A stretch of 57,820 bases of DNA from Fidelibacterota bacterium TCS55 (GCA_905182385.1 CAJJBS010000016.1:1-57820), one strand, 5' to 3'; shown: positions 2,459-41,137, counted from the stretch's first letter. Translations and numbers: made by a program. The notes: a model not told the origin generated them from the letters alone.

Positions 2459-3553
2459 ATGAACTTTTCTTGTAGTGTTTGCAATAATATTTACGATTCT
2501 CCAAAAGTGCCTATTTGGCTTTGTGGCTGTGGTAAGCCCTTAGTTGTTAATTATAACTGGGAAAACAAAGTTAAATCAATTGATATAATAGAAGACGAAC
2601 TATCTCTTTGGCGATATAAAAGTGTTTTACCAGAAGTTGAAACAAAAATTTCTTTGGGAGAAGGCCATACGCCACTAATCCCAATTAGTAAAAATGTTTA
2701 TGTAAAAGATGAAACTGTAAACCCTACCGGATCTTTTAAAGATAGAGGGATGGCTTTAGCGGTTACAATGGCAAAAGCACAAGGGGTCAAAACTATTTGC
2801 CTTCCTTCTGCAGGAAATGCTGGAATATCAGCTGCCGCATACTGCGAAGCTGCAGAAATTGAATGTAATGTTTTTTTACCAGAAACCATTCCTGAAGCTT
2901 TTAAAAAAGAAACGGAGAAGTATAGTGCAAACCTAACTTTGAGTGGAAATACCATTTCTGACGCAGCTAAGTATATGCTTAATAATAAAGAAGATGAATG
3001 GTTTGATATCTCCACTTTAAAAGAACCTTTTAGAGTTGAAGGAAAAAAAACTTTAGGGTATGAAATTGCAGAGCAGCTAGGGTGGAAATTTCCTGATGTG
3101 GTTGTTTATGAAACTGGTGGAGGAACAGGTTTAATAGGCATGTGGAAAGCTTTCCAAGAAATGCAAGGAATGGGTTGGGTTAAAGGGACGTTGCCACGAA
3201 TGGTAGCAGCGCAATCTGATGGATGTGCTCCTGTGGTCAAGGCTTTTCAAGAAATGAAAAAAGATACAGAATTTTGGGAAAACAGCCATACCATAGCATT
3301 AGGCCTTAATGTACCAGGGCCATTAGGAGGAAAATGGATTTTGGATGTTTTATCGCAAAGCAATGGTATCGCGATCTCTATTCCTGAAGAAGATTTGCTA
3401 GCATCAACAAAAGACATGAATGACATCACGGGTATAAACTCAAGCGCTGAAGCTGGTGTAGTTTGGTCTGCATATAATACCTTATTAAAAATGGATTGGA
3501 TAAGCAATCAGGAGAGTGTTGTTTTATTTGCCACTGGTATAGAGCGTTGCTAA
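2459..3553 (+). CDS. thrC: Threonine synthase (short form, PLP fold type II)
   Basis: 364 aa with an N-terminal Cys ribbon (CSVCNN..CGCG), the PLP-lysine motif NPTGSFKDRG and the glycine loop ETGGGTG. Confidence 0.75.
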   Translation: MNFSCSVCNNIYDSPKVPIWLCGCGKPLVVNYNWENKVKSIDIIEDELSLWRYKSVLPEVETKISLGEGHTPLIPISKNVYVKDETVNPTGSFKDRGMALAVTMAKAQGVKTICLPSAGNAGISAAAYCEAAEIECNVFLPETIPEAFKKETEKYSANLTLSGNTISDAAKYMLNNKEDEWFDISTLKEPFRVEGKKTLGYEIAEQLGWKFPDVVVYETGGGTGLIGMWKAFQEMQGMGWVKGTLPRMVAAQSDGCAPVVKAFQEMKKDTEFWENSHTIALGLNVPGPLGGKWILDVLSQSNGIAISIPEEDLLASTKDMNDITGINSSAEAGVVWSAYNTLLKMDWISNQESVVLFATGIERC

Positions 3554-3580
3554 ATTAATGAACCTTTAAGAAATAAGATT

Positions 3581-4663
3581 ATGAAGAACCAGATTAAAAA
3601 TACTCATATTATATTCTTGAGCTTATTATTTTTTGCATGCGAACCAATTGCTACAGAATTTGACGATATTGAAGCTGCTGTTGAGTATGAATCAGGGAAC
3701 TTGAAGGAATTTGGTCCAAAAAAAACCATAAAAGTAATGACCTGGAATATTCGATTTGGTGTTGCTCGATTACGATTTTTTGGAGATGGTTGCGGAGACA
3801 AGGTTATTATGACAAAGTCAGAAGTGACAACAGGTCTCAAGGGCTTAGCAGCAAAGATAATAGCTGAAGACCCTGATATATTATTATTGCAAGAGGTTGA
3901 TGTTCAGTCTAAAAAAACTGCCTACATAGATCAAGCTCAATGGTTATTAGATAACACGGACATGAACTATGGAGCCTATGGCTCAATGTGGCAAGCGCAG
4001 GCAATCCTTGCTGATGGCCTTGGAAGAGTTAATACAGGCAACCTAATTCTTTCTAAATGGAAATTAGAAAATGCTGAGAGGATTCAGCTTCCATTAAGAG
4101 GTGATCAGGATGGACTTACAAAATATTTTTATCTTCGAAGAAACGTACTAAAAGCCTTAGTAGATATGCCTGGTAATAAATTTTATGCTGTGAATACTCA
4201 CCTTACTGCATTTGCTACAGATGATACAAAACAAAAACATATTACGGGTTTTAAAAGTGTTCTTGATAATATTGCTGCTGAAGGGAAACATTTTGTTGCT
4301 GGTGGCGATCTTAATGAGCTCCCACCGAATGCTTTAAAGACAGATTATTGTATTGAAGATCAGTGTAGTAATGAGTCCTATCATACTGGCGGAGACACTG
4401 AGCATAAAGAAGGAGCCTATTTTACTCCTGAGATTACATGGCTAAATCCATTTTATAATACATATTCTCCCGCAATAACTCTTTTAGATTATGAAGACAA
4501 CGAGTCCGATCATTTTACCCATAGTCCTGATAATAATTTAAAATTAGATCGAAAACTAGACTATCTCTGGACTAATACAGAATGGATAAGCTCAAAAACA
4601 CATAAGGAAGCGACCAAGCTTTCAGACCACATTCCCGTAAGTGCCGTCTGGGAGATTAAATGA
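3581..4663 (+). CDS. Endonuclease/exonuclease/phosphatase (EEP) family lipoprotein
   Basis: 360 aa with a lipobox-like LLFFAC. EEP motifs are present: MTWNIRFG, LLLQEV, NTHL, GGDLN, SDHIPV. Confidence 0.75.
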   Translation: MKNQIKNTHIIFLSLLFFACEPIATEFDDIEAAVEYESGNLKEFGPKKTIKVMTWNIRFGVARLRFFGDGCGDKVIMTKSEVTTGLKGLAAKIIAEDPDILLLQEVDVQSKKTAYIDQAQWLLDNTDMNYGAYGSMWQAQAILADGLGRVNTGNLILSKWKLENAERIQLPLRGDQDGLTKYFYLRRNVLKALVDMPGNKFYAVNTHLTAFATDDTKQKHITGFKSVLDNIAAEGKHFVAGGDLNELPPNALKTDYCIEDQCSNESYHTGGDTEHKEGAYFTPEITWLNPFYNTYSPAITLLDYEDNESDHFTHSPDNNLKLDRKLDYLWTNTEWISSKTHKEATKLSDHIPVSAVWEIK

Positions 4664-5415
4664 AATTTTTTACTATCCTTTTATTTTTAGGAAGCTTAAC
4701 AGCACAGTGGACGAGTGGCTCTGCAAACCTAATTAAGCCAGGGAGAAAAGAAATTGGTTTATTTTCACCTATTTATATTGGTTTAAGTAATGGAAAAGAA
4801 GTCAGTGTAAATAAATTTTTACTTATGCCAAACGTCTCTCTTAAGCAGGAGCGCTCGATGATTGGTGAATGGAAAATAGCACAAAAAGTTCAAGTTGAAT
4901 ATCCGACAATAGGACTTAAATGGCTTCAAAGTCCTCTAGGAATGGAATTAGGTGAGCCAAACATGTTTGCTTTAATTTCACCCCAATTTAATATTCCACA
5001 AATGATCGCAGTTTATGGAGAGTTAATTGGTAGTAGAGGAACAGAAAAAACAGGCAGGATTACTATTCGAGGTGGAGGGGCTTTATCACTTGGTAAAAAG
5101 ATGTCAGAAGATGCGACAATAGACCTCCCTATTATTTATCCTCGTCTTTCAGTTTATTATAATGGCTCAGCTCTAAAAGTCGGTGGTGAATATTACCGTC
5201 AAGCAAAAGACCACTGGTCTTATTTAATTGATTATGACATGTTCTTAATGCCTGGAGGAAGAGGTCGTTATTCTTTTGAACATAAAGGGCTGTTAATCTG
5301 GTCAAAAAGTGAAAAATTTCGAATATTAACCGGTTACAAGCTCATTGCGGGTGAATACCCATTTGGCTCACAAGCTCATTTATTACCAGCGCTCGATATT
5401 CAATTTGGCTGGTAG
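4660..5415 (+). CDS. Hypothetical exported protein, possible outer-membrane beta-barrel
   Basis: 251 aa. The start overlaps the upstream stop (ATGA). It has a signal peptide (MKFFTILLFLGSLTAQ) and a beta-rich sequence ending in an aromatic residue (..LDIQFGW). I recognise no family. Confidence 0.5.
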   Translation: MKFFTILLFLGSLTAQWTSGSANLIKPGRKEIGLFSPIYIGLSNGKEVSVNKFLLMPNVSLKQERSMIGEWKIAQKVQVEYPTIGLKWLQSPLGMELGEPNMFALISPQFNIPQMIAVYGELIGSRGTEKTGRITIRGGGALSLGKKMSEDATIDLPIIYPRLSVYYNGSALKVGGEYYRQAKDHWSYLIDYDMFLMPGGRGRYSFEHKGLLIWSKSEKFRILTGYKLIAGEYPFGSQAHLLPALDIQFGW

Positions 5416-5431
5416 TCTTTTCAGGTTTTTT

Positions 5432-6988
5432 ATGATTACTTTATTAATTACCATCACCTTGATGGGTCAATCAAACTTGCCAGAAAACAATTTAGTTAAT
5501 GAACTTGGCTGTGGAAATTGCCATAGCGGGGTTAAAAATTCGTCTCTTATTAAAAAGAAGGCCCCCGACTTAAGTTATTCAGGATTAAAATATAACGAAG
5601 CTTATGTTTATGATTATTTAAAATCACCTCAAACAGTTAGGCAGCACATTGGTAATTCAAGAATGCCAAATTTTAATTTTTCAGATGATGAAGCGTATGC
5701 CCTAACACTTTATCTTATGAGTAAAACTTCTTTGCCTAAAGGGCGCAAGCTAAAAAAACGAAAGTATCAAAGCACAGATAATACATTTGAACTTATAAAT
5801 ACAGAATATCAGTGCACTGCTTGTCATAGCTTAAATGGTTCCGGCGTAAATAGATCGATTGATCTTTCCATAGCAGGTAGGAGGTTAAATCCAGAGTGGT
5901 TATTTGATATTATTTTAAAACCATCTGCTTATGTCCCAAGAGCATCACCCATGCCAACTTTCTTTAATGAAAATGAAGAAGCCTATGAGAAGATTTCTGA
6001 AATAGTTGGTTATTTAAATAATTTAGATAAGCCAAACTTGAAGAAGCTTAATTCAAATTATAAAAAAGTTTCAAAGGTAAATGCAATAGTTACAGCTGAA
6101 ATGGGTCAAAATATATTTCTATCACAAAATTGTATTTCTTGTCACAAAATGGATAGCGAAGAGTCCTGGTTTATTAACCATAATGCCCCAGACCTTAGTG
6201 CTCAAAAAATGAAAACTAAAACTGAATGGTTACTTAGTTATCTTAATGAGCCTTCTCCTATTAGACCAAACGGTTATTTTCCAGGTACTGGGAGTCGGAT
6301 GCCAAATTTTAATTTGAGTCAAAATGAAATTGAAAAGATTATGAAATGGCTAGGGTCGGCATCTTTAAAAACAAAACTAGAGCCAATCTCGGCTTTTCAA
6401 TCGCGTAAAGTAGAGCGACTACTAAATGATTACTTACCTTGTTTAGGCTGTCATGAATTAAATGGTAAGGGTGGTCAAATAGGACCAAGTTTATCAAATT
6501 CAGGTAATCGATTATTTGATGGATATATTAAAATGGGTATTCAAGTACCGCACATGGTTATGCCTGAAAGTATTATGCCAAAAACAGCGATGGACCCAAA
6601 GCTCATGCCTCTTCTTCAATCTTACTTCTCCAATGCAATAAGTGAAGAAAAAAATGAATATTTAAATTTAATCGAATATAAACCGTACCCAATTTCAAAT
6701 CAATATTCTTCAACTTGCGCTCCTTGTCACGGTCTCAAAGGACGAGGGGATGGTTTTAATGCGGAATTCTTACGAGTCCCTCCGGGTAATTTAGCAGATG
6801 GTAAAATAATTGGACAAAGAGCAGATGATACTTTATTTGAAACAATATATGGTGGTGGTAGAATAATGAACAAAAGTCATTTTATGCCAGCCTGGGGAGA
6901 AAAGCTTAGTCGAGAAGAAATTGTAAATCAGGTATCACAAATAAGAAAATTTTGTGATTGTAGTCCGCCAGAATGGTCAAAAAATTAA
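5432..6988 (+). CDS. Five-domain (pentaheme) class-I-type c-type cytochrome, exported
   Basis: There are five CxxCH motifs (CGNCH, CTACH, CISCH, CLGCH, CAPCH). Each is followed by a Met-Pro motif (SRMPNF, SPMPTF, SRMPNF, SIMPKT, HFMPAW), consistent with His/Met ligation. I prefer ATG 5432 (MITLLITITLMGQ leader) over the track's TTG 5345, which would overlap the previous gene by 71 nt. Confidence 0.85.
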   Translation: MITLLITITLMGQSNLPENNLVNELGCGNCHSGVKNSSLIKKKAPDLSYSGLKYNEAYVYDYLKSPQTVRQHIGNSRMPNFNFSDDEAYALTLYLMSKTSLPKGRKLKKRKYQSTDNTFELINTEYQCTACHSLNGSGVNRSIDLSIAGRRLNPEWLFDIILKPSAYVPRASPMPTFFNENEEAYEKISEIVGYLNNLDKPNLKKLNSNYKKVSKVNAIVTAEMGQNIFLSQNCISCHKMDSEESWFINHNAPDLSAQKMKTKTEWLLSYLNEPSPIRPNGYFPGTGSRMPNFNLSQNEIEKIMKWLGSASLKTKLEPISAFQSRKVERLLNDYLPCLGCHELNGKGGQIGPSLSNSGNRLFDGYIKMGIQVPHMVMPESIMPKTAMDPKLMPLLQSYFSNAISEEKNEYLNLIEYKPYPISNQYSSTCAPCHGLKGRGDGFNAEFLRVPPGNLADGKIIGQRADDTLFETIYGGGRIMNKSHFMPAWGEKLSREEIVNQVSQIRKFCDCSPPEWSKN

Positions 6989-7211
6989 ACTAAGGTTTTG
7001 CTGAAAAGACTTTGGTTTATAACCGTAAAGCTCTCTTAGGAAAGAGGAAATGTATTTCTTGAATTGAAAAAAATGAACGAGCAGTTGACCATATATATAT
7101 TTTTTAAAAATCGTCAAAAAAGTTTTTTAACTGAAAAGGCCATTTTAAAATAAAAGTTTTGTATATTCGAGACCAATTTAAGTACACGATGAATTATAGG
7201 AGGTATTACAA

Positions 7212-9284
7212 ATGAACATTAAGAAATATTTAATTTTACCATTACTGTTGATTTCAATAATAATGGGACAAGATAACAAAAAATTCAATTTTGAATTTGA
7301 AGCGGACTCAATCGAATTGCGGGTTGGCGAATCAAAGGAAGTGACGATTAAGTTATTAGATGAGAGTGGGAACCTTGCTCAAAATCCATTTTATGTATTT
7401 GGTCAACGAAAAACTTTATCAGTCTCTCCTCGAATAAGTGATTCCACAGGCGTTGCAACTGTTACAGTTACAGCGCATAAGCCAGGGAGATTAAGTTTAA
7501 GCACTCAGTCTATTACAATAAAACGTGACGATCGAATTAGAGGAACTTTAGTTGTTAATGTGCCTTCACCTCCTGTAGATCGTATTATTTTTAATCAAAA
7601 ACCATCAAAGCTTTACGTCCAAACAGCAACAGCATTATCTGTTGAAGTATTTGATGAAGCAGATTTAAACAGATCAGAGTTAAACGTAAAATTGGAATCA
7701 AGCAATTCAGGTGTAGCTGATTTTGATGCGTTTGGAAACTTAGAAACAAAGAAAACGGGCAAGACAACAGTGTCTGCTACAGTTGAGGGCCTTACAGAGT
7801 CTTTTAATATTCGTGTAGTTAAAAACCCAACACGTAAAGTGACTCTTTCTATTGATAAAGAGGAAATTAGAACTGGGGATGTACTGGCTTTGAATGCAAA
7901 AGCTTTAAATAGAAGTGATAGAGCTATAAATGATGCACCAATAACCTATACTTATGTTGGCAAAGCAGATTACGGCATGTTCGGTTTACCGGCAGCAGGG
8001 TTAGTAACTGACGATGGTAGATTTGTAGCTGAAACTGCAGGTATGTATACTCTTATTGCTTCATCTGGTGGGTATTCAGCCCAGAAAACAATTAAAGTTG
8101 TCCCAAGAAATATTCAGAAAAAAGCAAAACTTATTGGACATGGGCTGATAACTGACGTCCTTACCAGTGACTTATGGGTTTGGGCTGGAGTAGATAAGCA
8201 CAAAGGAAAAGATTTTGCAGTTACTGGCACATGGGGATCTAATGGAGAAGCATACTTTTGGGATGTTACCAATCCTGATAGTATGATCGTTATTGATACG
8301 ATAACTGTAGATGCGCGAACTGTAAATGATGTGAAAATATCTGAAGATGGACGCGTAGGGGTTATGACAAGAGAAGGCGCCTCAGATAGAAAAAATGGCT
8401 TTGTGGTTTTAGATGTTACAGATCCATATAATGTTACAATAACAGCAGAGTACAATGATGACATGACAGGCGGAGTTCATAATGTATTTATATATGAAAA
8501 TCATATTTATGCTGTAAATAATGGCCGTAAATATGATATTATTAACATTGACGATCCTTCAAAACCAAGACGTGTTGGAGTCTATGAAATAGATACACCT
8601 GGTCACAGCCTTCATGATGTTTGGATTGAAGATGGTATAGCCTACTCTTCAAATTGGAGTGACGGAGTTGTTGCGGTAGACATTGGTGGAATGAAATTTG
8701 ATGAAGCTGATCGCTCTCAGTTGCAGTTTAACCCTTTGTTAGCAAAAGCGGGCAAGGGAAGTCCATCAAATCCAATTAAACTAGCTGAAATGGGTGATCC
8801 AAATGGCTTAAATCACGCGGCCTTTCCATTTTTAAGTAAGTCAACGGGCAACTTTTATATTATAGGGGGAGATGAGACTTTTCCTTGGGGTGTAATGGCT
8901 ACTAAAGGACAGCCTTCAAACCCAAGAGGAGGCTTTCATTTTTTAAATTTTACAGACCCGGATAACCCTAAAGAAGATGCGGTCTATCAGGTTCCAGAGG
9001 CAGGATCTCACAACATGTGGGTATATGATGATGTCTTGATGGCTGCTTTTTACCAAGGAGGATTGCGCTTTGTAGATATATCTGGTGAATTACTTGGCGA
9101 TATTTATAATCAAGGGCGCGAGATTGCTGTATACCTTTCTGCACATAAAGAAGGAAAAATCCCTAACTCAACAATGGTCTGGGGAGCTCAGCCTTATAAA
9201 GATTATATATTCATTGCAGATATGAATTCAGGGCTCTATTGTATTCAATTAGAGGATTTAGAAAAAGGATCAGGTGCACCATAA
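7212..9284 (+). CDS. Exported Ig-like (Big_2-type) repeats plus LVIVD-type beta-propeller protein, paralog 1
   Basis: 690 aa. A strong RBS (AGGAGG) lies upstream, and a signal peptide is present. The N-terminal half has Big_2-like motifs (LRVGESKEVTIKL.., SSNSGVADFDAFGNLETKKTGKTTVSA). The C-terminal half has about 7 repeats ending in LVIVD-like strands (GFVVLDVTDP, YDIINIDDPSKP, GVVAVDIGG, GLRFVDISG, GLYCIQLED). Confidence 0.8.
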   Translation: MNIKKYLILPLLLISIIMGQDNKKFNFEFEADSIELRVGESKEVTIKLLDESGNLAQNPFYVFGQRKTLSVSPRISDSTGVATVTVTAHKPGRLSLSTQSITIKRDDRIRGTLVVNVPSPPVDRIIFNQKPSKLYVQTATALSVEVFDEADLNRSELNVKLESSNSGVADFDAFGNLETKKTGKTTVSATVEGLTESFNIRVVKNPTRKVTLSIDKEEIRTGDVLALNAKALNRSDRAINDAPITYTYVGKADYGMFGLPAAGLVTDDGRFVAETAGMYTLIASSGGYSAQKTIKVVPRNIQKKAKLIGHGLITDVLTSDLWVWAGVDKHKGKDFAVTGTWGSNGEAYFWDVTNPDSMIVIDTITVDARTVNDVKISEDGRVGVMTREGASDRKNGFVVLDVTDPYNVTITAEYNDDMTGGVHNVFIYENHIYAVNNGRKYDIINIDDPSKPRRVGVYEIDTPGHSLHDVWIEDGIAYSSNWSDGVVAVDIGGMKFDEADRSQLQFNPLLAKAGKGSPSNPIKLAEMGDPNGLNHAAFPFLSKSTGNFYIIGGDETFPWGVMATKGQPSNPRGGFHFLNFTDPDNPKEDAVYQVPEAGSHNMWVYDDVLMAAFYQGGLRFVDISGELLGDIYNQGREIAVYLSAHKEGKIPNSTMVWGAQPYKDYIFIADMNSGLYCIQLEDLEKGSGAP

Positions 9285-9322
9285 AAAGAGGATTTAGAAA
9301 AAGAATCAAGTGCGTCATAAAA
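9251..9322 (+). repeat. 36-nt tandem direct duplication of the gene 3' end, including its stop codon
   Basis: 9251-9286 (agaggatttagaaaaaggatcaggtgcaccataaaa) and 9287-9322 (agaggatttagaaaaagaatcaagtgcgtcataaaa) match at 32 of 36 positions. The second copy is in frame behind TAA 9282-9284 and ends with its own TAA at 9318-9320. Confidence 0.9.
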
Positions 9323-9336
9323 AATTGGAGAAAACT

Positions 9337-11391
9337 ATGAAAAAACTATATATACTTATATTAATCACTTTTAGTCTTGCTTTGGGACAAGAGAATTCTG
9401 AAAAAAAAGAAGCGAAGCACAGCTTTGTTTTTGAACCAGACTCCATCTCATTAAACATTGGTGAAACCAGAACGGTTACTATTAAACTTGTTGATGCTGA
9501 TGGAAATTTAGCCAAGACTCCTTTCTACGTTTATGGTAGACCAAGGCGTGCATTAGAATCAAGTCCAAGAATAAGTGATTCTACAGGCGTTGCTACAGTT
9601 ACACTTAAAGCGTTTAAACCAGGGAAGTTAAGCTTAAGTGTTAGAAGCATAGCTCAGAAAAGAGAAGATAGAGTGATGGGAAGTATGCCGGTTGAGGTTC
9701 CTTTTCCACCATTGGATAGGATTGTCTTTAATGAACCGGTTTCTAAAGTATATGTCGGAACATCTGTAAATTATAAAACAGAAGTTTTTGATAAAGCAAA
9801 TTTAAAAAGGACAGAATCAAAGGTGCTACTTTCATCAAGTAATTCAGATGTTGCTGAATTTGATAGTTATGGAAATTTAATAGCAAAAAAATCTGGTAAG
9901 ATTACACTGATTGCTTCAGTTGATGATATTAAAGAGAGCTTAAAAATAAAAGTATCGAAAAACCCTGTTCGCAAAATTAGCTTGACGGCTGATGAATCTG
10001 AAATTAGAACTGGAGATGTCTTACAATTCAACGCGCGAGCAATGAATAGGTCTAATAAGGTTATAAAAGACATCCCTATAACTTATTCTTACACAGGTCG
10101 TGCAGAGTATGGCATTGGATTGCCAGCATCAGCTTTAATTAATAAAGATGGAAAATTTGTAGCAGAGACTCCAGGTATTTTTACTGTAATTGCGCAATCT
10201 GGAGGTTTTTCAGCAAGAAAAACAGTTGAAGTTGTCCAACGAAATGTTAAAAAAGAAGTTAAGGTTGTAGGCCATGGAACCGTTGATGGTGTGAATACTT
10301 CAGATTTATGGGTATGGCCTGGAGTAGGTAAGCATAAAGGGAAAGACTTTGCTGCTACAGGAACATGGGGTGCGAATGGAGAGGCTTATTTTTGGGATGT
10401 AACAGAACCTGAGAATATGTATATCATTGATACCGTTACAGTTGACGCGAGAACGGTAAACGATGTCAAAGTTTCAGAGAATGGTGAAGTAGCTGTCATT
10501 ACTAGAGAAGGCGCATCAAATAGAAAAAATGGATTTGTTGTTCTAGATATTAGAGATCCATTTAATGTAAAAATTACAGCAGAGTATAATGATGATATGA
10601 CAGGTGGAGTTCATAATGTATTTATATATGAAAATCATGTTTATGCTGTTAATAATGGTCGTAAATACGACGTAATTAATATTGAAGACCCCTCTAAACC
10701 ACGAAGAGTGGGTCGCTATGAACTAGATACTCCAGGTCATGGAGTTCATGATGTTTGGGTAATAGATGGTCTTGCATATTCATCTAATTGGGCAGATGGT
10801 GTTCACGTTGTAGATGTTGGTGCAAAAAAATTCAATGAAAAGGACCGCTCTAAGAACCAGTATAACCCTTTTCTTGCTATGGCTAATGGCGATGGAAGCC
10901 CGGGAAACCCGATTAAGTTAGGTGGGATGGCAGATCCAAATGGTCATAATCATGCAGCTTTTCCTTTTATAAGTCAATCATCAGATAAATTTTATCTTAT
11001 CACTGGCGATGAATATGGTGGCCCATTTGGTATGGCTGGAGGGTTTCATTTCCTTGACTTTACAGACCCAAGTGACCCAAAAGAAACAGCGGTTTATCAA
11101 GTTCCAGAGGCTGGCTCTCATAATCACTGGGTTCATGGAGATACTTTATTAGCTTCATATTACCAAGGAGGGCTACGAGTCGTAGATATATCAGGTGAAT
11201 TAATGGGAGATATATATGCTCAAGGAAGAGAGATTGCTTTTTTTATGTCAAGTGATCCTAAAGGGTTTGTAGCAAATCGCCCAAATGTTTGGGGAACAAT
11301 GCCGTACAAAGGCCTGATTTATTTTTCAGATATGAATAATGGCTTGTGGGCAATCAAATTAGAAGATCAAAAACAAATGGGAACTAACTAG
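9337..11391 (+). CDS. Exported Ig-like (Big_2-type) repeats plus LVIVD-type beta-propeller protein, paralog 2
   Basis: It is colinear with 7212-9284 and shares long identical runs (SPRISDSTGVATVT, TAEYNDDMTGGVHNVFIYENH, AVYQVPEAGSHN). I prefer ATG 9337 (GGAG RBS, MKKLYILILITFSLALGQ leader) over the track's GTG 9310. Confidence 0.8.
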   Translation: MKKLYILILITFSLALGQENSEKKEAKHSFVFEPDSISLNIGETRTVTIKLVDADGNLAKTPFYVYGRPRRALESSPRISDSTGVATVTLKAFKPGKLSLSVRSIAQKREDRVMGSMPVEVPFPPLDRIVFNEPVSKVYVGTSVNYKTEVFDKANLKRTESKVLLSSSNSDVAEFDSYGNLIAKKSGKITLIASVDDIKESLKIKVSKNPVRKISLTADESEIRTGDVLQFNARAMNRSNKVIKDIPITYSYTGRAEYGIGLPASALINKDGKFVAETPGIFTVIAQSGGFSARKTVEVVQRNVKKEVKVVGHGTVDGVNTSDLWVWPGVGKHKGKDFAATGTWGANGEAYFWDVTEPENMYIIDTVTVDARTVNDVKVSENGEVAVITREGASNRKNGFVVLDIRDPFNVKITAEYNDDMTGGVHNVFIYENHVYAVNNGRKYDVINIEDPSKPRRVGRYELDTPGHGVHDVWVIDGLAYSSNWADGVHVVDVGAKKFNEKDRSKNQYNPFLAMANGDGSPGNPIKLGGMADPNGHNHAAFPFISQSSDKFYLITGDEYGGPFGMAGGFHFLDFTDPSDPKETAVYQVPEAGSHNHWVHGDTLLASYYQGGLRVVDISGELMGDIYAQGREIAFFMSSDPKGFVANRPNVWGTMPYKGLIYFSDMNNGLWAIKLEDQKQMGTN

Positions 11392-11399
11392 GATTTAAA

Positions 11400-12572
11400 A
11401 TGAAACGATTTACTCAATTTATACTAATATCCTTGATTGCAACTTTTTCACTAAGTGCCAAAGATTATTATATCTATTGTGCAACAGAATCTGAAGATGA
11501 AGTTGCTCTTATTAGGTTTGATGGTAAAACAGCACATGTTGAAAAACGTATTCCAGTTGGTGTTTGGCCATTAGAAATTGAAGGTCCTCATGGAATAACT
11601 GTATCACCAGATGGTGATTATTGGTATCTATCAATGGCTCACGGTCTTCCTTATGGTCATTTGTATAAATATAAAACAGGCTCAGATGAAATGGTTGATC
11701 GTGTAGAGCTAGGATTATTTCCAGCAACAATGGGAATTTCTAATGCCACTGGTTTAATATATATTGTTAATTTTAATTTACATGGAGGTCATACGGAGCC
11801 AAGCACTGTATCGATTGTCGATCCAGATGAAATGATTGAAATTGACCGAGTTGAAACAGGTATTATGCCGCACGGATCTAGATTGTTAAATAATGGACTA
11901 AAACATTATTCAGTTGCTATGATGTCAGGCATTTTATATGAAATTGATGCAATGACAATGCAAGTTACGCGGACCATGTCTACATCCCCCCCTCAAAAGA
12001 AAATGAATGCTCATAGTGGTCATAATATGAAAAAAATGGATCATGGGAGCATGAAAATGAGTAAAAATAAAGGGACGTCTAATAAAGATAAAAATGAAAT
12101 AGCAGCCATGGGAGAAATGAACCATGAGATGCCACCAGAGAAACCTACATGGGTATCCCCCCACCCAAATGATGATTTACTCTATGTAGTAAATAATGGT
12201 ACGGACAATGTGGTAGAAATCAATGTAAAAAGCTGGAAAGTAATACGCACTTTCAAAACAGATAAAGCGCCTTATAATTGTGAAGTGACTCAGGATGGAA
12301 GACACCTTGTTGTTACTTATAAAGGTGCTGCTAAAACGGGAGTTTGGGATTTAAAAACTGGTAAAGAAATAGCAAAGTTTAATAATACACGTAAAGTTAC
12401 GCACGGCGTTGTTATCTCTCCTGATAGTCGTTATGCTTTTGTTTCAGTTGAGGGAATAGGAAAAGAACCTGGTTCAGTGGAAATTTTTGACTTAAAAGAA
12501 TTAAAGGCCGTTGCTGTTGCTGAAATAGGTAAGCAAGCTGGTGGTATTGCTTTCTGGAAAATGGAAAATTAG
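11400..12572 (+). CDS. Exported YVTN-type beta-propeller protein with a Met/His-rich insert
   Basis: 390 aa with a signal peptide. It has YVTN-like repeats (PHGITVSPDGDYWYLS, LYVVNNGTDNVVEI, VTHGVVISPDSRYAFVS). Residues 193-249 form a low-complexity insert with 9 Met and 4 His (MNAHSGHNM, MDHGSMKM, MGEMNHEM). Confidence 0.75.
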   Translation: MKRFTQFILISLIATFSLSAKDYYIYCATESEDEVALIRFDGKTAHVEKRIPVGVWPLEIEGPHGITVSPDGDYWYLSMAHGLPYGHLYKYKTGSDEMVDRVELGLFPATMGISNATGLIYIVNFNLHGGHTEPSTVSIVDPDEMIEIDRVETGIMPHGSRLLNNGLKHYSVAMMSGILYEIDAMTMQVTRTMSTSPPQKKMNAHSGHNMKKMDHGSMKMSKNKGTSNKDKNEIAAMGEMNHEMPPEKPTWVSPHPNDDLLYVVNNGTDNVVEINVKSWKVIRTFKTDKAPYNCEVTQDGRHLVVTYKGAAKTGVWDLKTGKEIAKFNNTRKVTHGVVISPDSRYAFVSVEGIGKEPGSVEIFDLKELKAVAVAEIGKQAGGIAFWKMEN

Positions 12573-12579
12573 TTTCTAA

Positions 12580-13077
12580 CTACTTTACTTCTCTCGAAGT
12601 TCCAGTCATAGCTAGGACGATTTCAGTGCTCTCTTTGAATGAAGTGTGCTGAATAGTGGTAGCTTTATAAAAATAATATATCGTCAATAAATAAAGCACA
12701 TGAAACCACCATTCAGATATACTTCCACTTGTATTTAGCTTTATAAAAAAAACTCCATCTACAATTACCATTGCAATAAAAAGCATAGTTAGCATCATTG
12801 TTGGAGGGTAAAGTTTTCTCTTTATAGCAAACATTTGTTTATAAAGGCTGTCCCCCAGTTCAAGGTGAGACTCAAGATATTCTCTTACATTAACACCTGT
12901 ACCAACAAAAAAGAACATAACTAATGTTTGACCAGCGATAAAAATAATGCTGACTATTAAATCTAATGTTATATGGTTTTGAGCCCAAATATCAAAATAA
13001 TGATTTATGCCAATTAAGGTAAGCCCAAAACCTGAAAGGACAATCAACACATATGAAAAAGTCATGAAAAACCACAT
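12580..13077 (-). CDS. Hypothetical integral membrane protein (about 4 TM segments)
   Basis: 165 aa with four long hydrophobic segments and no recognisable motif. It is convergent with the propeller gene, with a 7-nt gap. Confidence 0.55.
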   Translation of the reverse strand: MWFFMTFSYVLIVLSGFGLTLIGINHYFDIWAQNHITLDLIVSIIFIAGQTLVMFFFVGTGVNVREYLESHLELGDSLYKQMFAIKRKLYPPTMMLTMLFIAMVIVDGVFFIKLNTSGSISEWWFHVLYLLTIYYFYKATTIQHTSFKESTEIVLAMTGTSREVK

Positions 13078-13085
13078 TTTAGATC

Positions 13086-14183
13086 CTAAACATTAAAATG
13101 GAAAAAAATACAATCACCATCACGCACAATATAATCTTTTCCTTCTAGTTGAGCCAAGCCTGCATCTTTAACTTTTTTTTCTGAACCATGCGTAAGTAGG
13201 TCTTCATATTTAATTACTTCTGCTTTAATAAAGCCCCTCTGAAAGTCAGTATGAATCTCTCCTGCAGCTTCTGGAGCTGTTGCCCCTTTTTTAATTGTCC
13301 AGGCCCTGACCTCAGTTGGTCCACCAGTAAAATAAGTTTCTAAACCTAATAATTTAAAGCTGGTATGAATTAATTTATTAAGTCCGGGCTCATTTAAATT
13401 ATATTCTTCCATAAACATATCTTTCTCATCTTCATCCAATGTGGCAATCTCTTGTTCTATCTTTCCACAGAGCCTTATGGCTTTATTATTTTCTCTTTTG
13501 GCAAGATCATAAAGAGCTTTAACATGTAAGTTTGTATTACTTTTTAAAATTTCGTTTTCATCAACATTAGCAACATATAGAATTGGTTTTCTAGTAAGGA
13601 GAAAAAGACTTTTTATTATTTCGAACTCTTCTTCTTCTGCATTAAAGGTCCTTGCCATTTTACCTTCATCGCAGTGCGCTTTTAATTTTAGAACTATGTT
13701 AAGTTCTTTTTGAGCTTTCTTCTCTTTTTTTGCTAGCTTATTTAATCTATACACGCTCTTTTCTAAAGTTTCTAGATCTGCTAGCAAAAGCTCAGTTTCA
13801 ATAAGCTCAGCATCTCGTAGAGGATCTATATTCCCTTCAACATGGGTAATATTTTCATCTTCAAAACACCTTACTACATGGATAATTGCAGATACTTGTC
13901 GAATTTGACTTAAAAATTGATTTCCTAGTCCCTCTCCTTTGCTTGCCCCTTTAACTAGCCCTGCGATATCAGTGAATTCAACTGATGCTGGTGTTATTTT
14001 TTCTGGATTAAAAATACTTTTAAGTTTAGGGAGTCTTGAGTCAGGTAGAGAAACAATTCCCATGTGTGGTTCAATTGTACAAAAGGGGTAATTTTCTGCA
14101 GGTACAGAAGATTTAGTAAGAGCATTAAAAATAGTAGATTTACCAACATTTGGTAACCCGACAATACCACAACGTAACGCCAT
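13086..14183 (-). CDS. ychF: Ribosome-binding ATPase YchF
   Basis: 365 aa with the P-loop GLPNVGKST, the DIAGLVKGAS G3 region and a C-terminal TGS-like end (..DGDCIFFHFNV). Confidence 0.95.
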   Translation of the reverse strand: MALRCGIVGLPNVGKSTIFNALTKSSVPAENYPFCTIEPHMGIVSLPDSRLPKLKSIFNPEKITPASVEFTDIAGLVKGASKGEGLGNQFLSQIRQVSAIIHVVRCFEDENITHVEGNIDPLRDAELIETELLLADLETLEKSVYRLNKLAKKEKKAQKELNIVLKLKAHCDEGKMARTFNAEEEEFEIIKSLFLLTRKPILYVANVDENEILKSNTNLHVKALYDLAKRENNKAIRLCGKIEQEIATLDEDEKDMFMEEYNLNEPGLNKLIHTSFKLLGLETYFTGGPTEVRAWTIKKGATAPEAAGEIHTDFQRGFIKAEVIKYEDLLTHGSEKKVKDAGLAQLEGKDYIVRDGDCIFFHFNV

Positions 14184-34764: not shown

Positions 34765-36987
34765 ATGTTTGCTGAAGTTTCATTCCCAATTTCGAGCTAT
34801 CAGACTTTTTCATATAAAGTCCCAGATCATTTAGCGCCAAAAATTATAGTTGGAATTCGAGTAATAGTTCCTTTGGGGAATCGTAAGGTTAAGGGTATTA
34901 TTGTTGGAATAAATAAGGTTTCTTCATTTAAAGGTAAAATAAGAACAATTTATGATCTAGTAGATGACCAGCAAGTCTTAAACGATAATTTATGGTCTCT
35001 TATTAAATGGTTGTCTAAATATTATAATTCACCTTTAGGCCTGGCGGCCAAAGCTGTACTTCCATCAAATCTATCTACAAAGTATAAGCCGAAAGTAGAA
35101 TTTTTAGTCGAAGCTTTACCAGTAAAAGAGATTAATAATTCTTTAGGTAGCGCCCAAAAAACTGTTTATAGCCACCTTAAAAGCTTAGAAGGCAGAGTAC
35201 ATGTAAAATCTTTATCAAGTCTTTGTTCTAACCCAAAAGACATTTGCAAGAAATTAGCTGAAAAAGGATTAGTCTCATTATTAGATAGGCCAATAATTCC
35301 TGATCTAAGTGAATTTGCTTTTAAATCTAAAAATAAAGAGATTATTTTAACTTCAGCGCAAAATGTTGCACTAGAAAAAATGGTTAGTTCTATGGATAAA
35401 GATAAATTTAATTCTATTTTGCTTCATGGCGTAACTGGAAGTGGTAAAACTGAAATTTATATTGAAGCAGCTCGACATGCTATAAAAATAAATAAGACAG
35501 TTATTATGTTACTTCCCGAAATTTCTTTAACTCCGCAGATCGCTGGTAGGTTTAGATCAGCATTTGGAGATGATGTGGCTTTATGGCATTCTAAGTTGAG
35601 CCAGGGGGCAAGAGCTTGGACGTGGAAGCAAATTTGTGGAGGAAAATTTAAAGTAGTTATTGGAGCCCGTTCAGCAATTTTTTCACCATTAAAAAATGTG
35701 GGCTTAATTGTAGTTGATGAAGAACAAGAATCATCTTATAAACAAGAATCTCCAAATCCAAGATATCATGCAAGAGATGTTGCGCTCATGCGAGGAAAAC
35801 TAGACAATGCTTCTGTTATATTAGCGAGTGCTACTCCAAGTATGGAGTCTTATTATAATCACCTTAATGGTAAATATGAATATATACATTTAAAAGAAAG
35901 GTTTGGTGGTGCAAAATATCCAAAGGTGCATGTCGTGGATATGATTAAGGAGTCAGAAGAAACAGAATTATATGGAAATATTTTTTCAAGATTACTTTTA
36001 GAAAAAATTGAAGATAGATTATCCAAAAAAGAGCAAGTCATCTTATTTCACAATCGTAGAGGTTTTGCGCCTATTTTAAGATGCGAGGACTGCGGAGAGA
36101 TTTCTATGTGTCCTCATTGTAATATTGCTTTAACCTATCATAGCAGCGGTAAATATTTACAATGTCACTTCTGCAATCATACTAAAAAGACGATACCCTC
36201 TAAGTGTGATTCTTGCCAAAGTTTTAAGATAAAGCTGTCTGGAACTGGAACGCAAAAAGTTGAAGATGAATTATTAAATAAATTTCCTGAAGCAGTAATT
36301 AAAAGATTAGATGCAGACTCTGTGAGATCAGGGATTAATCTGACGAGAATCCTCCAACAATTTTATGATAATAAAATAGACATATTGCTAGGGACTCAAA
36401 TGATAGCAAAAGGTTTAGACTTTGCAAATGCTACCTTAGTAGGTATTATAAATGGAGATACAGGATTATTTTTACCAGACTTTCGCTCCAGTGAAAAAGT
36501 TTTTCAATTAATTTATCAAGCCGCAGGACGATCTGGAAGAGGCGAAATTCCAGGCGAGGTTATCATTCAAACTTATAGTCCTGAAAACCCTGTAATTAAA
36601 TGTGCGACAGAGCTTAATGTGGAGAAATATTATAATATTTGCTTAGAAGAGAGAAAAGCTCTTTTATATCCACCTTTTAGCTGGATGGTAAAACTTGAAA
36701 TACGAGGAAAAAATATAAGTGAAGTTGAAAAATCTATTAATAAAATAAAAGATAGAATGACTTATCCGCCAAAAGGGATTTCTATTCTTGGCCCGGCATT
36801 ATGTTATCGAGAAAAACTCAGAGATTATTATCGAATGCAATTAATATTAAAATCAAATAAGGAATTAGATATTAATGGCTCTAAGCTTCACAAATATTAT
36901 AAATCAATTATGTCTAAAGGTGTTAGTAATGAGATTCCTTCAAAACAAAGATTGATAATTGATATTAATCCTGTATCATTGTTATGA
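34765..36987 (+). CDS. priA: Primosomal replication-restart helicase PriA
   Basis: 740 aa with Walker A GVTGSGKTE, VVDEEQES and a Cys-rich zinc module (CEDCGEISMCPHCNIALTYH..CHFCNH..CDSC). Confidence 0.92.
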   Translation: MFAEVSFPISSYQTFSYKVPDHLAPKIIVGIRVIVPLGNRKVKGIIVGINKVSSFKGKIRTIYDLVDDQQVLNDNLWSLIKWLSKYYNSPLGLAAKAVLPSNLSTKYKPKVEFLVEALPVKEINNSLGSAQKTVYSHLKSLEGRVHVKSLSSLCSNPKDICKKLAEKGLVSLLDRPIIPDLSEFAFKSKNKEIILTSAQNVALEKMVSSMDKDKFNSILLHGVTGSGKTEIYIEAARHAIKINKTVIMLLPEISLTPQIAGRFRSAFGDDVALWHSKLSQGARAWTWKQICGGKFKVVIGARSAIFSPLKNVGLIVVDEEQESSYKQESPNPRYHARDVALMRGKLDNASVILASATPSMESYYNHLNGKYEYIHLKERFGGAKYPKVHVVDMIKESEETELYGNIFSRLLLEKIEDRLSKKEQVILFHNRRGFAPILRCEDCGEISMCPHCNIALTYHSSGKYLQCHFCNHTKKTIPSKCDSCQSFKIKLSGTGTQKVEDELLNKFPEAVIKRLDADSVRSGINLTRILQQFYDNKIDILLGTQMIAKGLDFANATLVGIINGDTGLFLPDFRSSEKVFQLIYQAAGRSGRGEIPGEVIIQTYSPENPVIKCATELNVEKYYNICLEERKALLYPPFSWMVKLEIRGKNISEVEKSINKIKDRMTYPPKGISILGPALCYREKLRDYYRMQLILKSNKELDINGSKLHKYYKSIMSKGVSNEIPSKQRLIIDINPVSLL

Positions 36988-37877
36988 AAATTGTATTATA
37001 TATATTTTTTAGTATTAGCATTTGTTTTGGGCAGTTTTCTTTTCATGGACTAAATACTTGGACGCAAAGCAGTGTAATAAGTTTAGCTGGCGGAGGTCTT
37101 CTACTAGACTTTGAAAATGATTTTAAAAACCCTGCTACTCTAAAAATCTCAAAACGTAAGGTAAGATTTTCTTCAATAAGTTATCCTGTTGATATTACGG
37201 CTCAGTCAATGATTGCAAATGGTAATTTTGTAGGTCATAGTCTTGGATTTAAAGCGAGTCGGGTTAACTATGGTGTTTTTGAAGGAAGGAATACTGATAA
37301 TGAATTAACGGAAAATTACTCTGCAGGAGATATTACTTTTGAGTTTGCATATGCAAACTCAAAATTTTCAAAACAAATTCATTGGGGTATAACTGGCGGA
37401 GTATTTCTAAGTAGGCTAGAGGAATTTAAAGCAAGCGCAATAATGCTATCTCCAGGAATTATTATTAACACTAAAATACTCACATTAGGTATGATGTTAA
37501 AAAACTTTAGTAAAGTTGTTAAGCAGTATGGTGCAGTTAAAGAGAAAACACCATCGTACTTTATTGGGTCAATATCCCGAGATCTTTCTTTTATCCCTTT
37601 AAAAGTTGAAATTGATCATTTTTATTTAATTAATGGTAACCATAGATATTCAGTTTTTTCTGGTATTTACGAGTTTGATAAGAATTTATTTTTTAAAGTA
37701 GGAACATCAACTAACAGATTAGATCAAACAATAAACTCTTCATTTTTTAGAAATATTTTTTCTGATTTTGGAATTGGTCTGATATATAAGATTGAAGATA
37801 TAGTTATTGATGTTAATTCTTACTCATATGGTACAGGAGGATTAGTTTTTGCAATTGGTATGTCAGTATACTATTAA
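36984..37877 (+). CDS. Hypothetical exported protein, possible outer-membrane beta-barrel
   Basis: 297 aa. It overlaps the priA stop (ATGA), has a signal peptide ending ..CFGQ, is beta-rich and ends ..GMSVYY. Confidence 0.5.
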   Translation: MKIVLYIFFSISICFGQFSFHGLNTWTQSSVISLAGGGLLLDFENDFKNPATLKISKRKVRFSSISYPVDITAQSMIANGNFVGHSLGFKASRVNYGVFEGRNTDNELTENYSAGDITFEFAYANSKFSKQIHWGITGGVFLSRLEEFKASAIMLSPGIIINTKILTLGMMLKNFSKVVKQYGAVKEKTPSYFIGSISRDLSFIPLKVEIDHFYLINGNHRYSVFSGIYEFDKNLFFKVGTSTNRLDQTINSSFFRNIFSDFGIGLIYKIEDIVIDVNSYSYGTGGLVFAIGMSVYY

Positions 37878-39796: not shown

Positions 39797-41137
39797 ATGA
39801 ACCGTATTTTATATATTATAATCATATTTTTTATTTTTTCTGGCTGTGAAGAAGTTGAAAAGTCAGAAAAGTCAACTTGGAGCATTATTCAAGAGGAAAT
39901 TATTGTGTCTAGTTGTCTTAATTGCCATGCAAGCGAGTCAACTATTACTAAACAATCAGGTTTAGATTTGTCAAATAATGAGGCTTACAGTGAAATGGTT
40001 GGCGTTACCCCTAAAAATATTGCTGCAAAAAATGATGGTTTGGTTATTATTAGTAATGAAGGAGGTATGAAAGGTTTATCCAAAAGTTTTTTATGGGAAA
40101 AAGTGAATGCATATGACCGCGAACACTATCTTAGTGACCATCCAGAATATGGTCAAATGATGCCTCCGGGTGAAAACTTTTTATCTGATGGTCAATTACA
40201 ATTTGTTAGATCGTGGATCGAAGCTGGGGCTCCAGAATCGGGAACTGTTGTAGATGAAAAATTATTATTGGATTCGAATAGATATTCACCCCCTGAATTC
40301 TCTCCTTTAAAACCTCCAGAAAAAGGCATTCAGTTACACATTAAGCCTTTTGAAGTACAGTCTAATTTTGAAAGAGAATTTTTTCAATATACAGATCTAA
40401 ATATAGAAGGAGATATATATGCAAATCGAATTGAAATTGAAATGAGACCAGGAAGTCACCATTTTATTTTATATTCATTTGATGAAAATATAAACAATTC
40501 AAATATACCTGAATTTGATATTAAAAGAGATTTGAGGTTTGAAGATGGATCTATGAATATTCGAACTCTAAGAACTATGCAGGATCATGAATTTTTCACT
40601 GGAACCCAATGGCCAAGAATGGATTATAAATTACCTTCAGGTGTAGCTTTTAAATTAAATTCAAAATTTGGGATAGATCAAAATTCTCATTATGTGAATA
40701 GATCAGATTCTATTATGATTGGAGAGGTCTTTACAAACATTCATACTATTGAGGAGTCAGAGGTTGTAAAAGTTGCAAATATGTTAAATTGGTCAAACCA
40801 GCAAATTTTATTACCGCCTCAAAAGGTAACTACATTAAATAAGACTTTCATTGCAGATACTCCAATCTCCATTGGTCAGCTTTTTTCACACGCACATGAG
40901 AAAATGACAGAGTTTGTAGTAAAAATTAAAGGTGGGGAACGCAATGGTGAATTAGTCTATTGGACAGATGATTGGAAGCACCCACCTATAATTAACTATG
41001 ATCCTCCTATTAAATTAAATAGTGGTGAAGGGCTTGAGCTTATTACTACATATGATAATCCAAGCAATAAATTTGTTACTTTCGGTTTTTTATCTACAGA
41101 TGAAATGATGATTTTATTTGGTTGGTATTTTAAATAG
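39797..41137 (+). CDS. Lipoprotein fusing a planctomycete-type cytochrome c domain to a PHM/DBH-like copper monooxygenase core
   Basis: 446 aa with a lipobox (FSGC). The N-terminal domain has CLNCH (39914-39928), ..SGLDLS.., ..MPPGENFLSDGQLQFVRSWIEAGAP, as in PSCyt1-like domains. The C-terminal part has the ordered motifs SHHFILY, NSHYVN, SHAHEKM and STDEMMILFGWYF. These parallel rat PHM VHHMLLF (CuH), QVHYG (CuH), VHTHHLG (CuM) and SSDEMCNLYIMYY (CuM Met). Confidence 0.65.
   Translation: MNRILYIIIIFFIFSGCEEVEKSEKSTWSIIQEEIIVSSCLNCHASESTITKQSGLDLSNNEAYSEMVGVTPKNIAAKNDGLVIISNEGGMKGLSKSFLWEKVNAYDREHYLSDHPEYGQMMPPGENFLSDGQLQFVRSWIEAGAPESGTVVDEKLLLDSNRYSPPEFSPLKPPEKGIQLHIKPFEVQSNFEREFFQYTDLNIEGDIYANRIEIEMRPGSHHFILYSFDENINNSNIPEFDIKRDLRFEDGSMNIRTLRTMQDHEFFTGTQWPRMDYKLPSGVAFKLNSKFGIDQNSHYVNRSDSIMIGEVFTNIHTIEESEVVKVANMLNWSNQQILLPPQKVTTLNKTFIADTPISIGQLFSHAHEKMTEFVVKIKGGERNGELVYWTDDWKHPPIINYDPPIKLNSGEGLELITTYDNPSNKFVTFGFLSTDEMMILFGWYFK

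Follow-up and report, generated by a model that had tools for sequence, protein, structure and literature searches.

Sb-PTE, the haloalkylphosphorus hydrolase of Sphingobium sp. TCM1 (PDB 5HRM and 5IOJ), is a seven-bladed propeller and a binuclear-metal phosphotriesterase, so far known, to our knowledge, from flame-retardant-degrading bacteria. It was in cell-surface proteins that LVIVD repeats were originally described (PMC2447325), and a preprint on Tenderiales mentions an LVIVD protein only as a putative attachment factor; literature and database sources yielded no assigned function for LVIVD-repeat proteins (PF08309). Two further systems are relevant for comparison: AztD of Paracoccus and Citrobacter, a periplasmic zinc metallochaperone with eight blades, three pore histidines and disordered His-rich tracts (PMC6689063), and the L-NosZ clusters, for which cytochrome and transporter neighbours were reported (PMC13477213). 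Here, we compare these systems with a locus in a 57,820-nt stretch of DNA from Fidelibacterota bacterium TCS55 (GCA_905182385.1 CAJJBS010000016.1:1-57820; hereafter, the window), where six genes for exported proteins follow each other at positions 3581-12572. The last three encode two LVIVD propellers (LVIVD-A and LVIVD-B) and a YVTN-type propeller (YVTN). On sequence grounds, the LVIVD propellers are homologues of Sb-PTE with matching conserved residues, and we consider the chances about even that they act as secreted binuclear-metal hydrolases with YVTN as a dedicated metal-binding partner. Our literature searches found no description of LVIVD proteins together with cytochromes in Marinimicrobia, or of this module.

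LVIVD-A (7212..9284, + strand) starts with a signal peptide and combines three Ig-like domains with a seven-bladed propeller, an assignment based on AlphaFold, PF08309 and homology to Sb-PTE. Its AlphaFold model (mean predicted local distance difference test, pLDDT, of 88.9) shows the three Ig-like domains and seven four-stranded blades, the propeller domain spanning residues 303-682 (nt 8118-9257, + strand). LVIVD-B (9337..11391, + strand) is a paralogue, 64% identical, that shares the domain layout of LVIVD-A and its six candidate ligands. That these are two paralogous Ig-like plus LVIVD propellers had been proposed in the first-pass annotation and holds at the family level (PF08309 scores of 22.8 and 24.7 bits, gathering cut-off 20.2); the scarcity of cysteine noted there is also real, with 1, 0 and 2 residues in the three propellers. 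Membership in the choice-of-anchor B family (TIGR04312) was considered and rejected, given scores of 57.3 and 77.2 bits against a cut-off of 100 and matches restricted to the C-terminal part.

The relation to Sb-PTE appears at the level of fold and of divergent profiles. In a Foldseek search of the PDB with LVIVD-A, the best propeller match was 5hrm_A (Sb-PTE), with E = 3.9e-11 and a target-normalised template modelling (TM) score of 0.53. A profile of 49 divergent LVIVD members, representatives drawn from an exhaustive search, matched 5hrm_A (E = 1.1e-11) and 5ioj_A (2.3e-11) as its only propellers in the PDB. A single LVIVD sequence, or a profile of close homologues, gave no propeller match against PDB sequences. 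Sb-PTE itself carries the LVIVD-type repeat motif in successive blades, and a sub-profile of LVIVD blades 4-6 matched only this repeat motif in each Sb-PTE blade, leaving the ligands unregistered.

The comparison then depends on the metal site. We take the ligands of the binuclear Mn centre of Sb-PTE to be E201, H258, H317, H389, E407 and H475 (Mabanglo et al. 2016). A 583-aa Sb-PTE orthologue encoded on a Sphingobium xenophagum plasmid has E, H, H, H, E and H at positions 201, 258, 317, 389, 407 and 475. The register between Sb-PTE and LVIVD-A was set by HMMER for blades 1-3 and by blade counting for the rest. HMMER aligned Sb-PTE H258 with LVIVD-A H423, and MAFFT aligned H389, E407 and H475 with H535, E555 and H600. 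Few polar residues are conserved as well as the six candidate ligands in 48 sequences of 30-60% identity (D373 98%, H423 92%, H468 88%, H535 92%, E555 92% and H600 90%), and these six are identical in LVIVD-A and LVIVD-B; H431, H465 and H576 look invariant among close relatives but are not conserved family-wide. The model appears to put the six residues where the innermost strands of blades 2-6 begin and where strand B of blade 5 ends; from the secondary-structure map, we infer a position on the propeller's top face for all of them. Since the candidate ligands appear to correspond to those of the binuclear centre of Sb-PTE, the LVIVD proteins may be binuclear-metal hydrolases.

The usual database reading of proteins that combine LVIVD repeats with Ig-like domains is that of structural or adhesive surface proteins, which would have no catalytic or metal function. 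The Ig-like domains themselves agree with it, as do the S-layer and adhesin structures that lead the Foldseek list of the N-terminal part and the cell-surface origin of the first descriptions of the repeat. However, such a role would not explain why the pore-facing ends of one blade after another keep nearly invariant His, Asp and Glu residues in three phyla, nor would it explain homology to an enzyme, and we regard it as highly improbable.

We propose the following mechanism. The LVIVD proteins would be exported by their Sec signal peptide, with the three Ig-like domains serving as a stalk and the seven-bladed propeller lying beyond it. At the top of the central tunnel, D373, H423, H468, H535, E555 and H600 would act as Sb-PTE-like ligands for binuclear Mn/Zn, and a metal-bridged hydroxide could attack an ester, the likeliest putative substrate being a phosphoester. 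YVTN, with a flexible Met/His loop over its His-bearing top face, would bind metal ions and serve the LVIVD enzymes as a periplasmic metal chaperone or buffer. The pentaheme cytochrome gene and the gene pair that lie 5′ of the propeller genes would be neighbouring but separate units.

YVTN (11400..12572, + strand) is a YVTN/YncE-type seven-bladed propeller, as the first reading had it: it scores 39.5 bits with PF21783 (cut-off 27.1) and 34.9 bits with TIGR02276 (cut-off 27.85), is annotated in the YncE family and has seven blades in its model. Six histidines (H64, H81, H128, H158, H255 and H335) show no variation between Marinimicrobia and Balneolaceae; the model has them where A strands begin or in B-C loops, and so on the top face. 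Residues 197-246 (11988..12137, + strand) form an insert in the loop between blades 3 and 4, predicted to be disordered (pLDDT ~30) and rich in Met and His (8 Met and 4 His among its 50 residues). Homologues have inserts of 9 to 55 residues that keep the Met/His-rich composition, except for the Balneolaceae locus L030, where the insert is absent. Of the copper or metal link suggested earlier, a connection with metal is plausible because of the His-lined pore of YVTN, its Met/His loop, a ZIP gene in Balneolaceae and a gene for an HMA-domain lipoprotein in the Marinimicrobia locus L021; the copper-redox part found no support.

The unit formed by these propellers recurs. We compared LVIVD-seeded loci, from GTDB species representatives and Balneolaceae genomes, with cytochrome-seeded loci from metagenome contigs. 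YVTN stands directly 3′ of the last LVIVD gene in 25 of the 28 LVIVD-seeded loci, which cover Marinimicrobia and Balneolaceae, and the LVIVD/YVTN module is the only one of the locus that recurs across phyla. The idea of an undescribed extracytoplasmic unit is borne out for the LVIVD pair plus YVTN. In five Balneolaceae loci, the LVIVD, YVTN and ZIP transporter genes follow one another on one strand, and in the sixth the Zip gene is 3.5 kb away; the genes 3′ of Zip vary between loci. In L021, the HMA-domain lipoprotein gene comes after YVTN.

These neighbours also suit a reading in which both propellers are non-catalytic binders for metal acquisition or homeostasis, with an AztD-like YVTN feeding a membrane importer (ZIP in Balneolaceae). 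The recurrent LVIVD-YVTN-Zip order and the HMA lipoprotein gene of L021 favour it, and so does the combination of a His-lined pore with a flexible His-rich tract, as in AztD (PMC6689063). On the other hand, the LVIVD proteins appear to keep the full ligand set of an enzyme active site, and a ZIP gene is absent from the 57.8-kb window and from the Marinimicrobia loci examined. AztD is eight-bladed and YVTN seven-bladed, and no AztD appears among the best 60 of 178 PDB profile matches of YVTN (E up to 10); an identification of YVTN as AztD was rejected for these reasons. Related loci carry 1 to 4 LVIVD copies, and up to four in tandem fit substrate-diversifying enzymes better than chaperones. 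We therefore judge a purely metal-handling role for both propellers unlikely.

A different combination would make YVTN itself a metal-dependent hydrolase or lyase, acting before or after the LVIVD enzymes in a two-step pathway. A central metal is common among propeller hydrolases of 6 or 7 blades, and YVTN has weak matches to lactonase-type propellers. Its invariant H335 (strand A) and E351 (end of strand B) mimic H535/E555 of LVIVD-A, albeit in an alignment by hhalign that is non-significant: the comparison of YVTN with the LVIVD profile gave a probability of 0.6%. YVTN shows no significant similarity to characterised enzymes, and a disordered Met/His loop is more typical of metal capture. 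Such a pathway is rather improbable in our estimation.

Returning to hydrolases served by a metal-binding partner, several observations on the module in other genomes can be recorded. Three or four tandem LVIVD genes precede YVTN in L013 (10001-18502), L049 (6771-14491) and L055 (10534-16109). The tandem arrays of some Marinimicrobia suggest repeated duplication of the predicted enzyme gene. Solo LVIVD genes lacking an adjacent YVTN were seen in L019 (9989-12049), L020 (3468-5513) and L026 (9953-12067); those of L019 and L020 are 83-84% identical to LVIVD-B, the L019 copy adjoins an ABC transporter, and the L026 gene is near one for a DJ-1/PfpI protein with a heavy-metal-binding domain. Upstream of the LVIVD-YVTN-Zip operons of Balneolaceae, no 8-mer was common to four or more loci; CGTTACAAT-like elements were noted by eye in L030 (7435-7776), L038 (7686-8000), L036 (7609-8000) and L037 (7698-8000). 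In L030, a tandem CGTTACAAT-like pair forms the imperfect palindrome GTTACAAT-TT-ATTGAAAC, which could be a putative operator, perhaps for a Fur/Zur-like regulator.

The first-pass annotation had proposed one redox/copper module of five genes at 4660-12572, perhaps joined by the lipoprotein gene immediately upstream (3581-4663) as a sixth. Our comparison separates 3581-12572 into three adjacent modules: an endonuclease/exonuclease/phosphatase (EEP) lipoprotein with an orphan gene, a pentaheme cytochrome, and LVIVD-A/LVIVD-B/YVTN. All parts occur together in only one Marinimicrobia clade, which also shares the flanking thrC, ychF and fabA; co-localisation beyond clade-level synteny was not found, and the parts separate elsewhere. 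Their joint occurrence is clade-level synteny and not evidence of coupling. A neighbourhood analysis had been suggested to see whether a cytochrome/propeller/propeller arrangement recurs: the LVIVD/YVTN arrangement does, and the one with the cytochrome is confined to that clade.

The cytochrome deserves closer attention, as it bears on the redox interpretation of the locus. The gene (5405..6988, + strand, counted from a TTG at 5405; alternatively from an ATG at 5432) encodes a pentaheme class-I c-type cytochrome with matches to Pfam Cytochrom_C and Cytochrome_CBB3. The earlier description of a five-domain cytochrome c is well founded: five CXXCH motifs are invariant in six orthologues, each followed by a conserved downstream Met-Pro motif, and the 97 bits with PF00034, together with CXXCH and a distal Met in each domain, place the protein among multidomain class I cytochromes. 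The in-frame TTG is probably the start because the resulting N-terminus, MAGSLFRFF..., resembles that of the L060 orthologue (MAGKIKFR...) and gives a charged n-region; an 11-nt overlap with the end of the preceding gene then replaces a 16-nt gap.

The cytochrome and the propellers might form one periplasmic redox/copper system, in which electrons would pass to propeller copper ligated by histidines, as in NosZ CuZ or thiocyanate dehydrogenase. Same-strand adjacency in the window and in many Marinimicrobia relatives argues for it, LVIVD being found in 12 of the 18 cytochrome-seeded loci with sufficient downstream sequence. The adjacency persists between L001 and L008 although the cytochrome pair and a set of ABC transporter genes have changed places, each staying intact. 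The Met/His-rich loop and the six invariant pore histidines of YVTN would fit, a Met/His-rich composition being typical of periplasmic Cu(I) sites, as would the HMA-domain gene next to YVTN in L021. NosZ structures are also found among the YVTN fold matches (query-normalised TM 0.64-0.68).

Most of the locus comparison, however, opposes a single redox system. Cytochrome presence was scored in the 18 LVIVD-seeded loci with at least 4 kb of upstream sequence; it accompanies LVIVD in only 5 and is absent from 13, including all six from Balneolaceae. No CXXCH protein was found within the flanks of L012, L017, L021, L023 and L029, and no cytochrome gene, annotated or detected, in the flanks of the Balneolaceae loci L030 and L034-L038. 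In L013, the sequence shows a minus-strand gene for an FG-GAP lipoprotein between the cytochromes and LVIVD-A; tblastn matches place the same gene in L054-L056, and L014 has the same 2.2-kb gap. The conserved partner of the cytochrome is another one, an octaheme cytochrome with a TPR domain, whose gene is directly 3′ of the pentaheme gene in 27 of 37 cytochrome-seeded loci. This pair occurs alone as well: in L095 and L096, and within a shorter downstream flank in L094, all from organisms of higher GC content, it stands without LVIVD or YVTN, and in L060, L062 and L065, which are Marinimicrobia-like contigs, without propellers; L101 has the pentaheme gene alone. The partner is missing here, at what is a recombination junction, and the closest characterised relative of the LVIVD proteins is a hydrolase.

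The propellers offer little to a copper enzyme either. The earlier reader had already set them apart from NosZ, rightly, as no NosZ or cupredoxin family appears in the Pfam/NCBIfam results of the three propellers. No cupredoxin domain or CuA motif was found in them, and their PDB sequence and profile searches contained no NosZ (for the YVTN profile, among the best 60 of 178 matches). Assignment to L-NosZ (clade III, NF052460) was rejected, the score being 41.1 bits against a cut-off of 700, with residues 262-370 covering only positions 102-208 of a 480-position model and not collinear with it. Taken with the loci above, one redox/copper system appears distinctly improbable. We think it very unlikely indeed that YVTN holds a new His-ligated multinuclear copper centre, akin to CuZ of NosZ or to the tricopper site in thiocyanate dehydrogenase, wired to the cytochromes in the SAR406 clade; if it did, the locus would encode a previously unrecognised small-molecule oxidoreductase in a very abundant marine bacterial group.

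The cytochrome of the window is best described as a remnant of a module of its own, its octaheme partner being missing from the window; a search of the window did not find the octaheme/ABC module. Elsewhere, the genes that often come after the pentaheme/octaheme pair are an orphan, an ABC ATPase gene, two FtsX permease genes and one for a LolA-like protein. As a side observation, a recurrent set of pentaheme and octaheme cytochromes, a 361-aa orphan, ABC ATPase, two FtsX and a LolA-like protein is encoded in L001 (970-9921), L008 (750-9873) and L096 (9977-18985). The octaheme protein of this set has its TPR domain and an MtrC-like similarity, and the set is also present in organisms of GC 0.47-0.53 that have no propeller genes.

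The AT-rich intergenic region that divides the cytochrome module from the propeller module (6989..7211, no strand assigned) was compared with L040, a close relative, and with other relatives. Nucleotide identity to L040 is 87.1% left of 7028 and 96.3% right of 7118, and L040 has the 2.2-kb octaheme/TPR cytochrome gene (6923-9117) exactly at the position of the 223-nt gap of the window. This jump in identity and the gene found at the gap indicate a recombination or deletion breakpoint. The gap is a point of indels and recombination; at the same junction, other relatives have up to six extra genes, or one minus-strand gene. It is also a probable, candidate promoter region of the propeller operon. 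The gap ends in TAGGAGGT, 8 nt before the ATG at 7212, and contains the AGGAGG motif reported before. A promoter and terminator scan of 3400-13200 was at chance level (36 against 35.5 expected, and 4 against 6.1).

Upstream of the cytochrome gene, the first two genes of the block form a unit of their own. The first (3581..4663, + strand) encodes an EEP-family lipoprotein (PF03372, 51.5 bits, E = 1.4e-13; lipobox LFFAC), and the second (4660..5415, + strand), which overlaps it by ATGA, encodes an exported 251-aa orphan protein with a signal peptide and the C-terminus ...QFGW. Pfam, NCBIfam and PDB searches gave no match to the orphan, and only its signal peptide and C-terminal FGW favour the earlier label of outer membrane protein-like, which we could not confirm. 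The orphan gene is always paired with the EEP gene in the compared loci; in the cytochrome-bearing Marinimicrobia clade, the EEP gene is directly 5′ of it wherever the locus extends that far, and in L012 the pair comes directly before LVIVD-A, with the cytochrome absent. The suggestion that the EEP gene belongs to one block with the others did not hold, since the EEP/orphan pair is a separate neighbouring unit. The phosphoesterase superfamily of the lipoprotein fits, weakly, the phosphoester theme proposed for the LVIVD proteins.

The window as a whole is chromosomal DNA of Marinimicrobia/SAR406 (Fidelibacterota), the name carried by its close homologues, and its other genes are housekeeping ones (uvrA, ruvB, queA, H+-pyrophosphatase, priA, bamA, lpxC/D). 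The structure of the block was correctly described at first pass: a check of open reading frames (ORFs) returned six plus-strand genes for exported proteins, at 3581-4663, 4660-5415, 5432-6988, 7212-9284, 9337-11391 and 11400-12572; the junctions are tight, apart from one gap of 223 nt. At 4660 the ATGA overlap is confirmed, and with ATG starts the other gaps measure 16, 52 and 8 nt as described. Pfam/NCBIfam searches likewise uphold the family calls for the EEP, cytochrome, LVIVD and YVTN proteins. Immediately downstream, on the minus strand and convergent with the YVTN gene, 12580-13077 encodes a predicted membrane protein of 165 aa with no family match, kept at the same place, before ychF and fabA, in most Marinimicrobia loci. 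Among the otherwise housekeeping genes, the ORFs at 36984-37877 (297 aa) and 39797-41137 (446 aa) had no Pfam match at E up to 1e-5.

Some points weigh against LVIVD hydrolases with YVTN as their metal-binding partner. Identity to Sb-PTE is ~15-23%. Our list of Sb-PTE ligands was checked by residue types at six positions only. The match of H317 with H468 comes from blade counting and collinearity, as MAFFT is off by one blade in the N-terminal half, and blade counting leaves Sb-PTE E201 2-3 residues away from LVIVD-A D373. The putative role of YVTN is argued from conservation and gene neighbours, its fold matches are to generic seven-bladed propellers, and the Sb-PTE gene has neither YVTN nor ZIP as a neighbour. 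In addition, one Marinimicrobia clade keeps the cytochrome beside the propellers across 49-100% identity and through rearrangements; because the adjacency survives this divergence and rearrangement, a functional link between cytochrome and propellers that is specific to the clade is possible.

The family in question is large and widespread. At E up to 0.001, the search of a representative library gave 5,521 cluster representatives of LVIVD proteins, and word-index searches gave more than 5,000 clusters each at the 90% identity level. The family is found in SAR406/Marinimicrobia, Balneolaceae and also Gemmatimonadota, and is very abundant in the ocean. Judged from sequence comparison, the LVIVD proteins would be new, distant members of the Sb-PTE kind, and their apparently obligate pairing with a His-lined propeller, plus ZIP in Balneolaceae, would be new as well. 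Their proposed function rests on remote homology, and the link to the sole characterised relative makes it testable; cultured Balneolaceae (Fodinibius, Gracilimonas and Rhodohalobacter) carry the module, which opens it to experiment. If the substrates are phosphoesters, the module bears on the turnover of marine dissolved organic phosphorus, and the pairing would add a new case to the dedicated metal partners known from the periplasm.

Returning to the known systems, YVTN has its best sequence and fold matches in YncE and an archaeal S-layer YVTN protein (3VGZ and 1L0Q), and these run along the generic repeat. Specific to the YVTN family described here are its set of invariant histidines and its Met/His insert, with the limit that the YncE and 1L0Q sequences were not inspected for these features. 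NosZ and L-NosZ have in common with YVTN a seven-bladed propeller and several centre-facing histidines, but in fold YVTN resembles generic YVTN and WD40 propellers at least as closely as NosZ. The logic of YVTN and ZIP in Balneolaceae is similar to that of AztD, with pore histidines, a flexible His-rich tract and a metal-importer gene nearby. AztD differs in its second transfer site and in working with a cognate ABC transporter and solute-binding protein, and the YVTN tract is rich in Met too; in the window, neither an ABC zinc importer gene nor any other importer gene flanks the module.

Orthologues of Sb-PTE were also recorded. Five Sphingobium/Sphingopyxis plasmids, three of them typed as conjugative, carry the orthologue at 96-99% identity, in each case annotated only as a hypothetical protein. 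On Sphingobium xenophagum plasmid p3 (L110, 5572-7323), the one whose gene neighbours were inspected, an IS6100 transposase gene is ~0.6 kb away. A 46%-identical copy is located on a 1.8-Mb Novosphingobium replicon.

Sb-PTE itself is alike to the LVIVD proteins in its seven blades, its LVIVD-type repeats and its profile homology. With the ligand list as we take it, five of the six metal ligands would be identical at matching blade positions, with E201 replaced by a nearby Asp. Unlike Sb-PTE, the LVIVD proteins of the window have three N-terminal Ig-like domains and a YVTN partner gene. They are chromosomal and abundant in marine heterotrophs, whereas Sb-PTE is found on conjugative Sphingomonad plasmids beside IS6100. 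The link between the two suggests that the LVIVD family may be a natural reservoir from which this xenobiotic-degrading enzyme arose.

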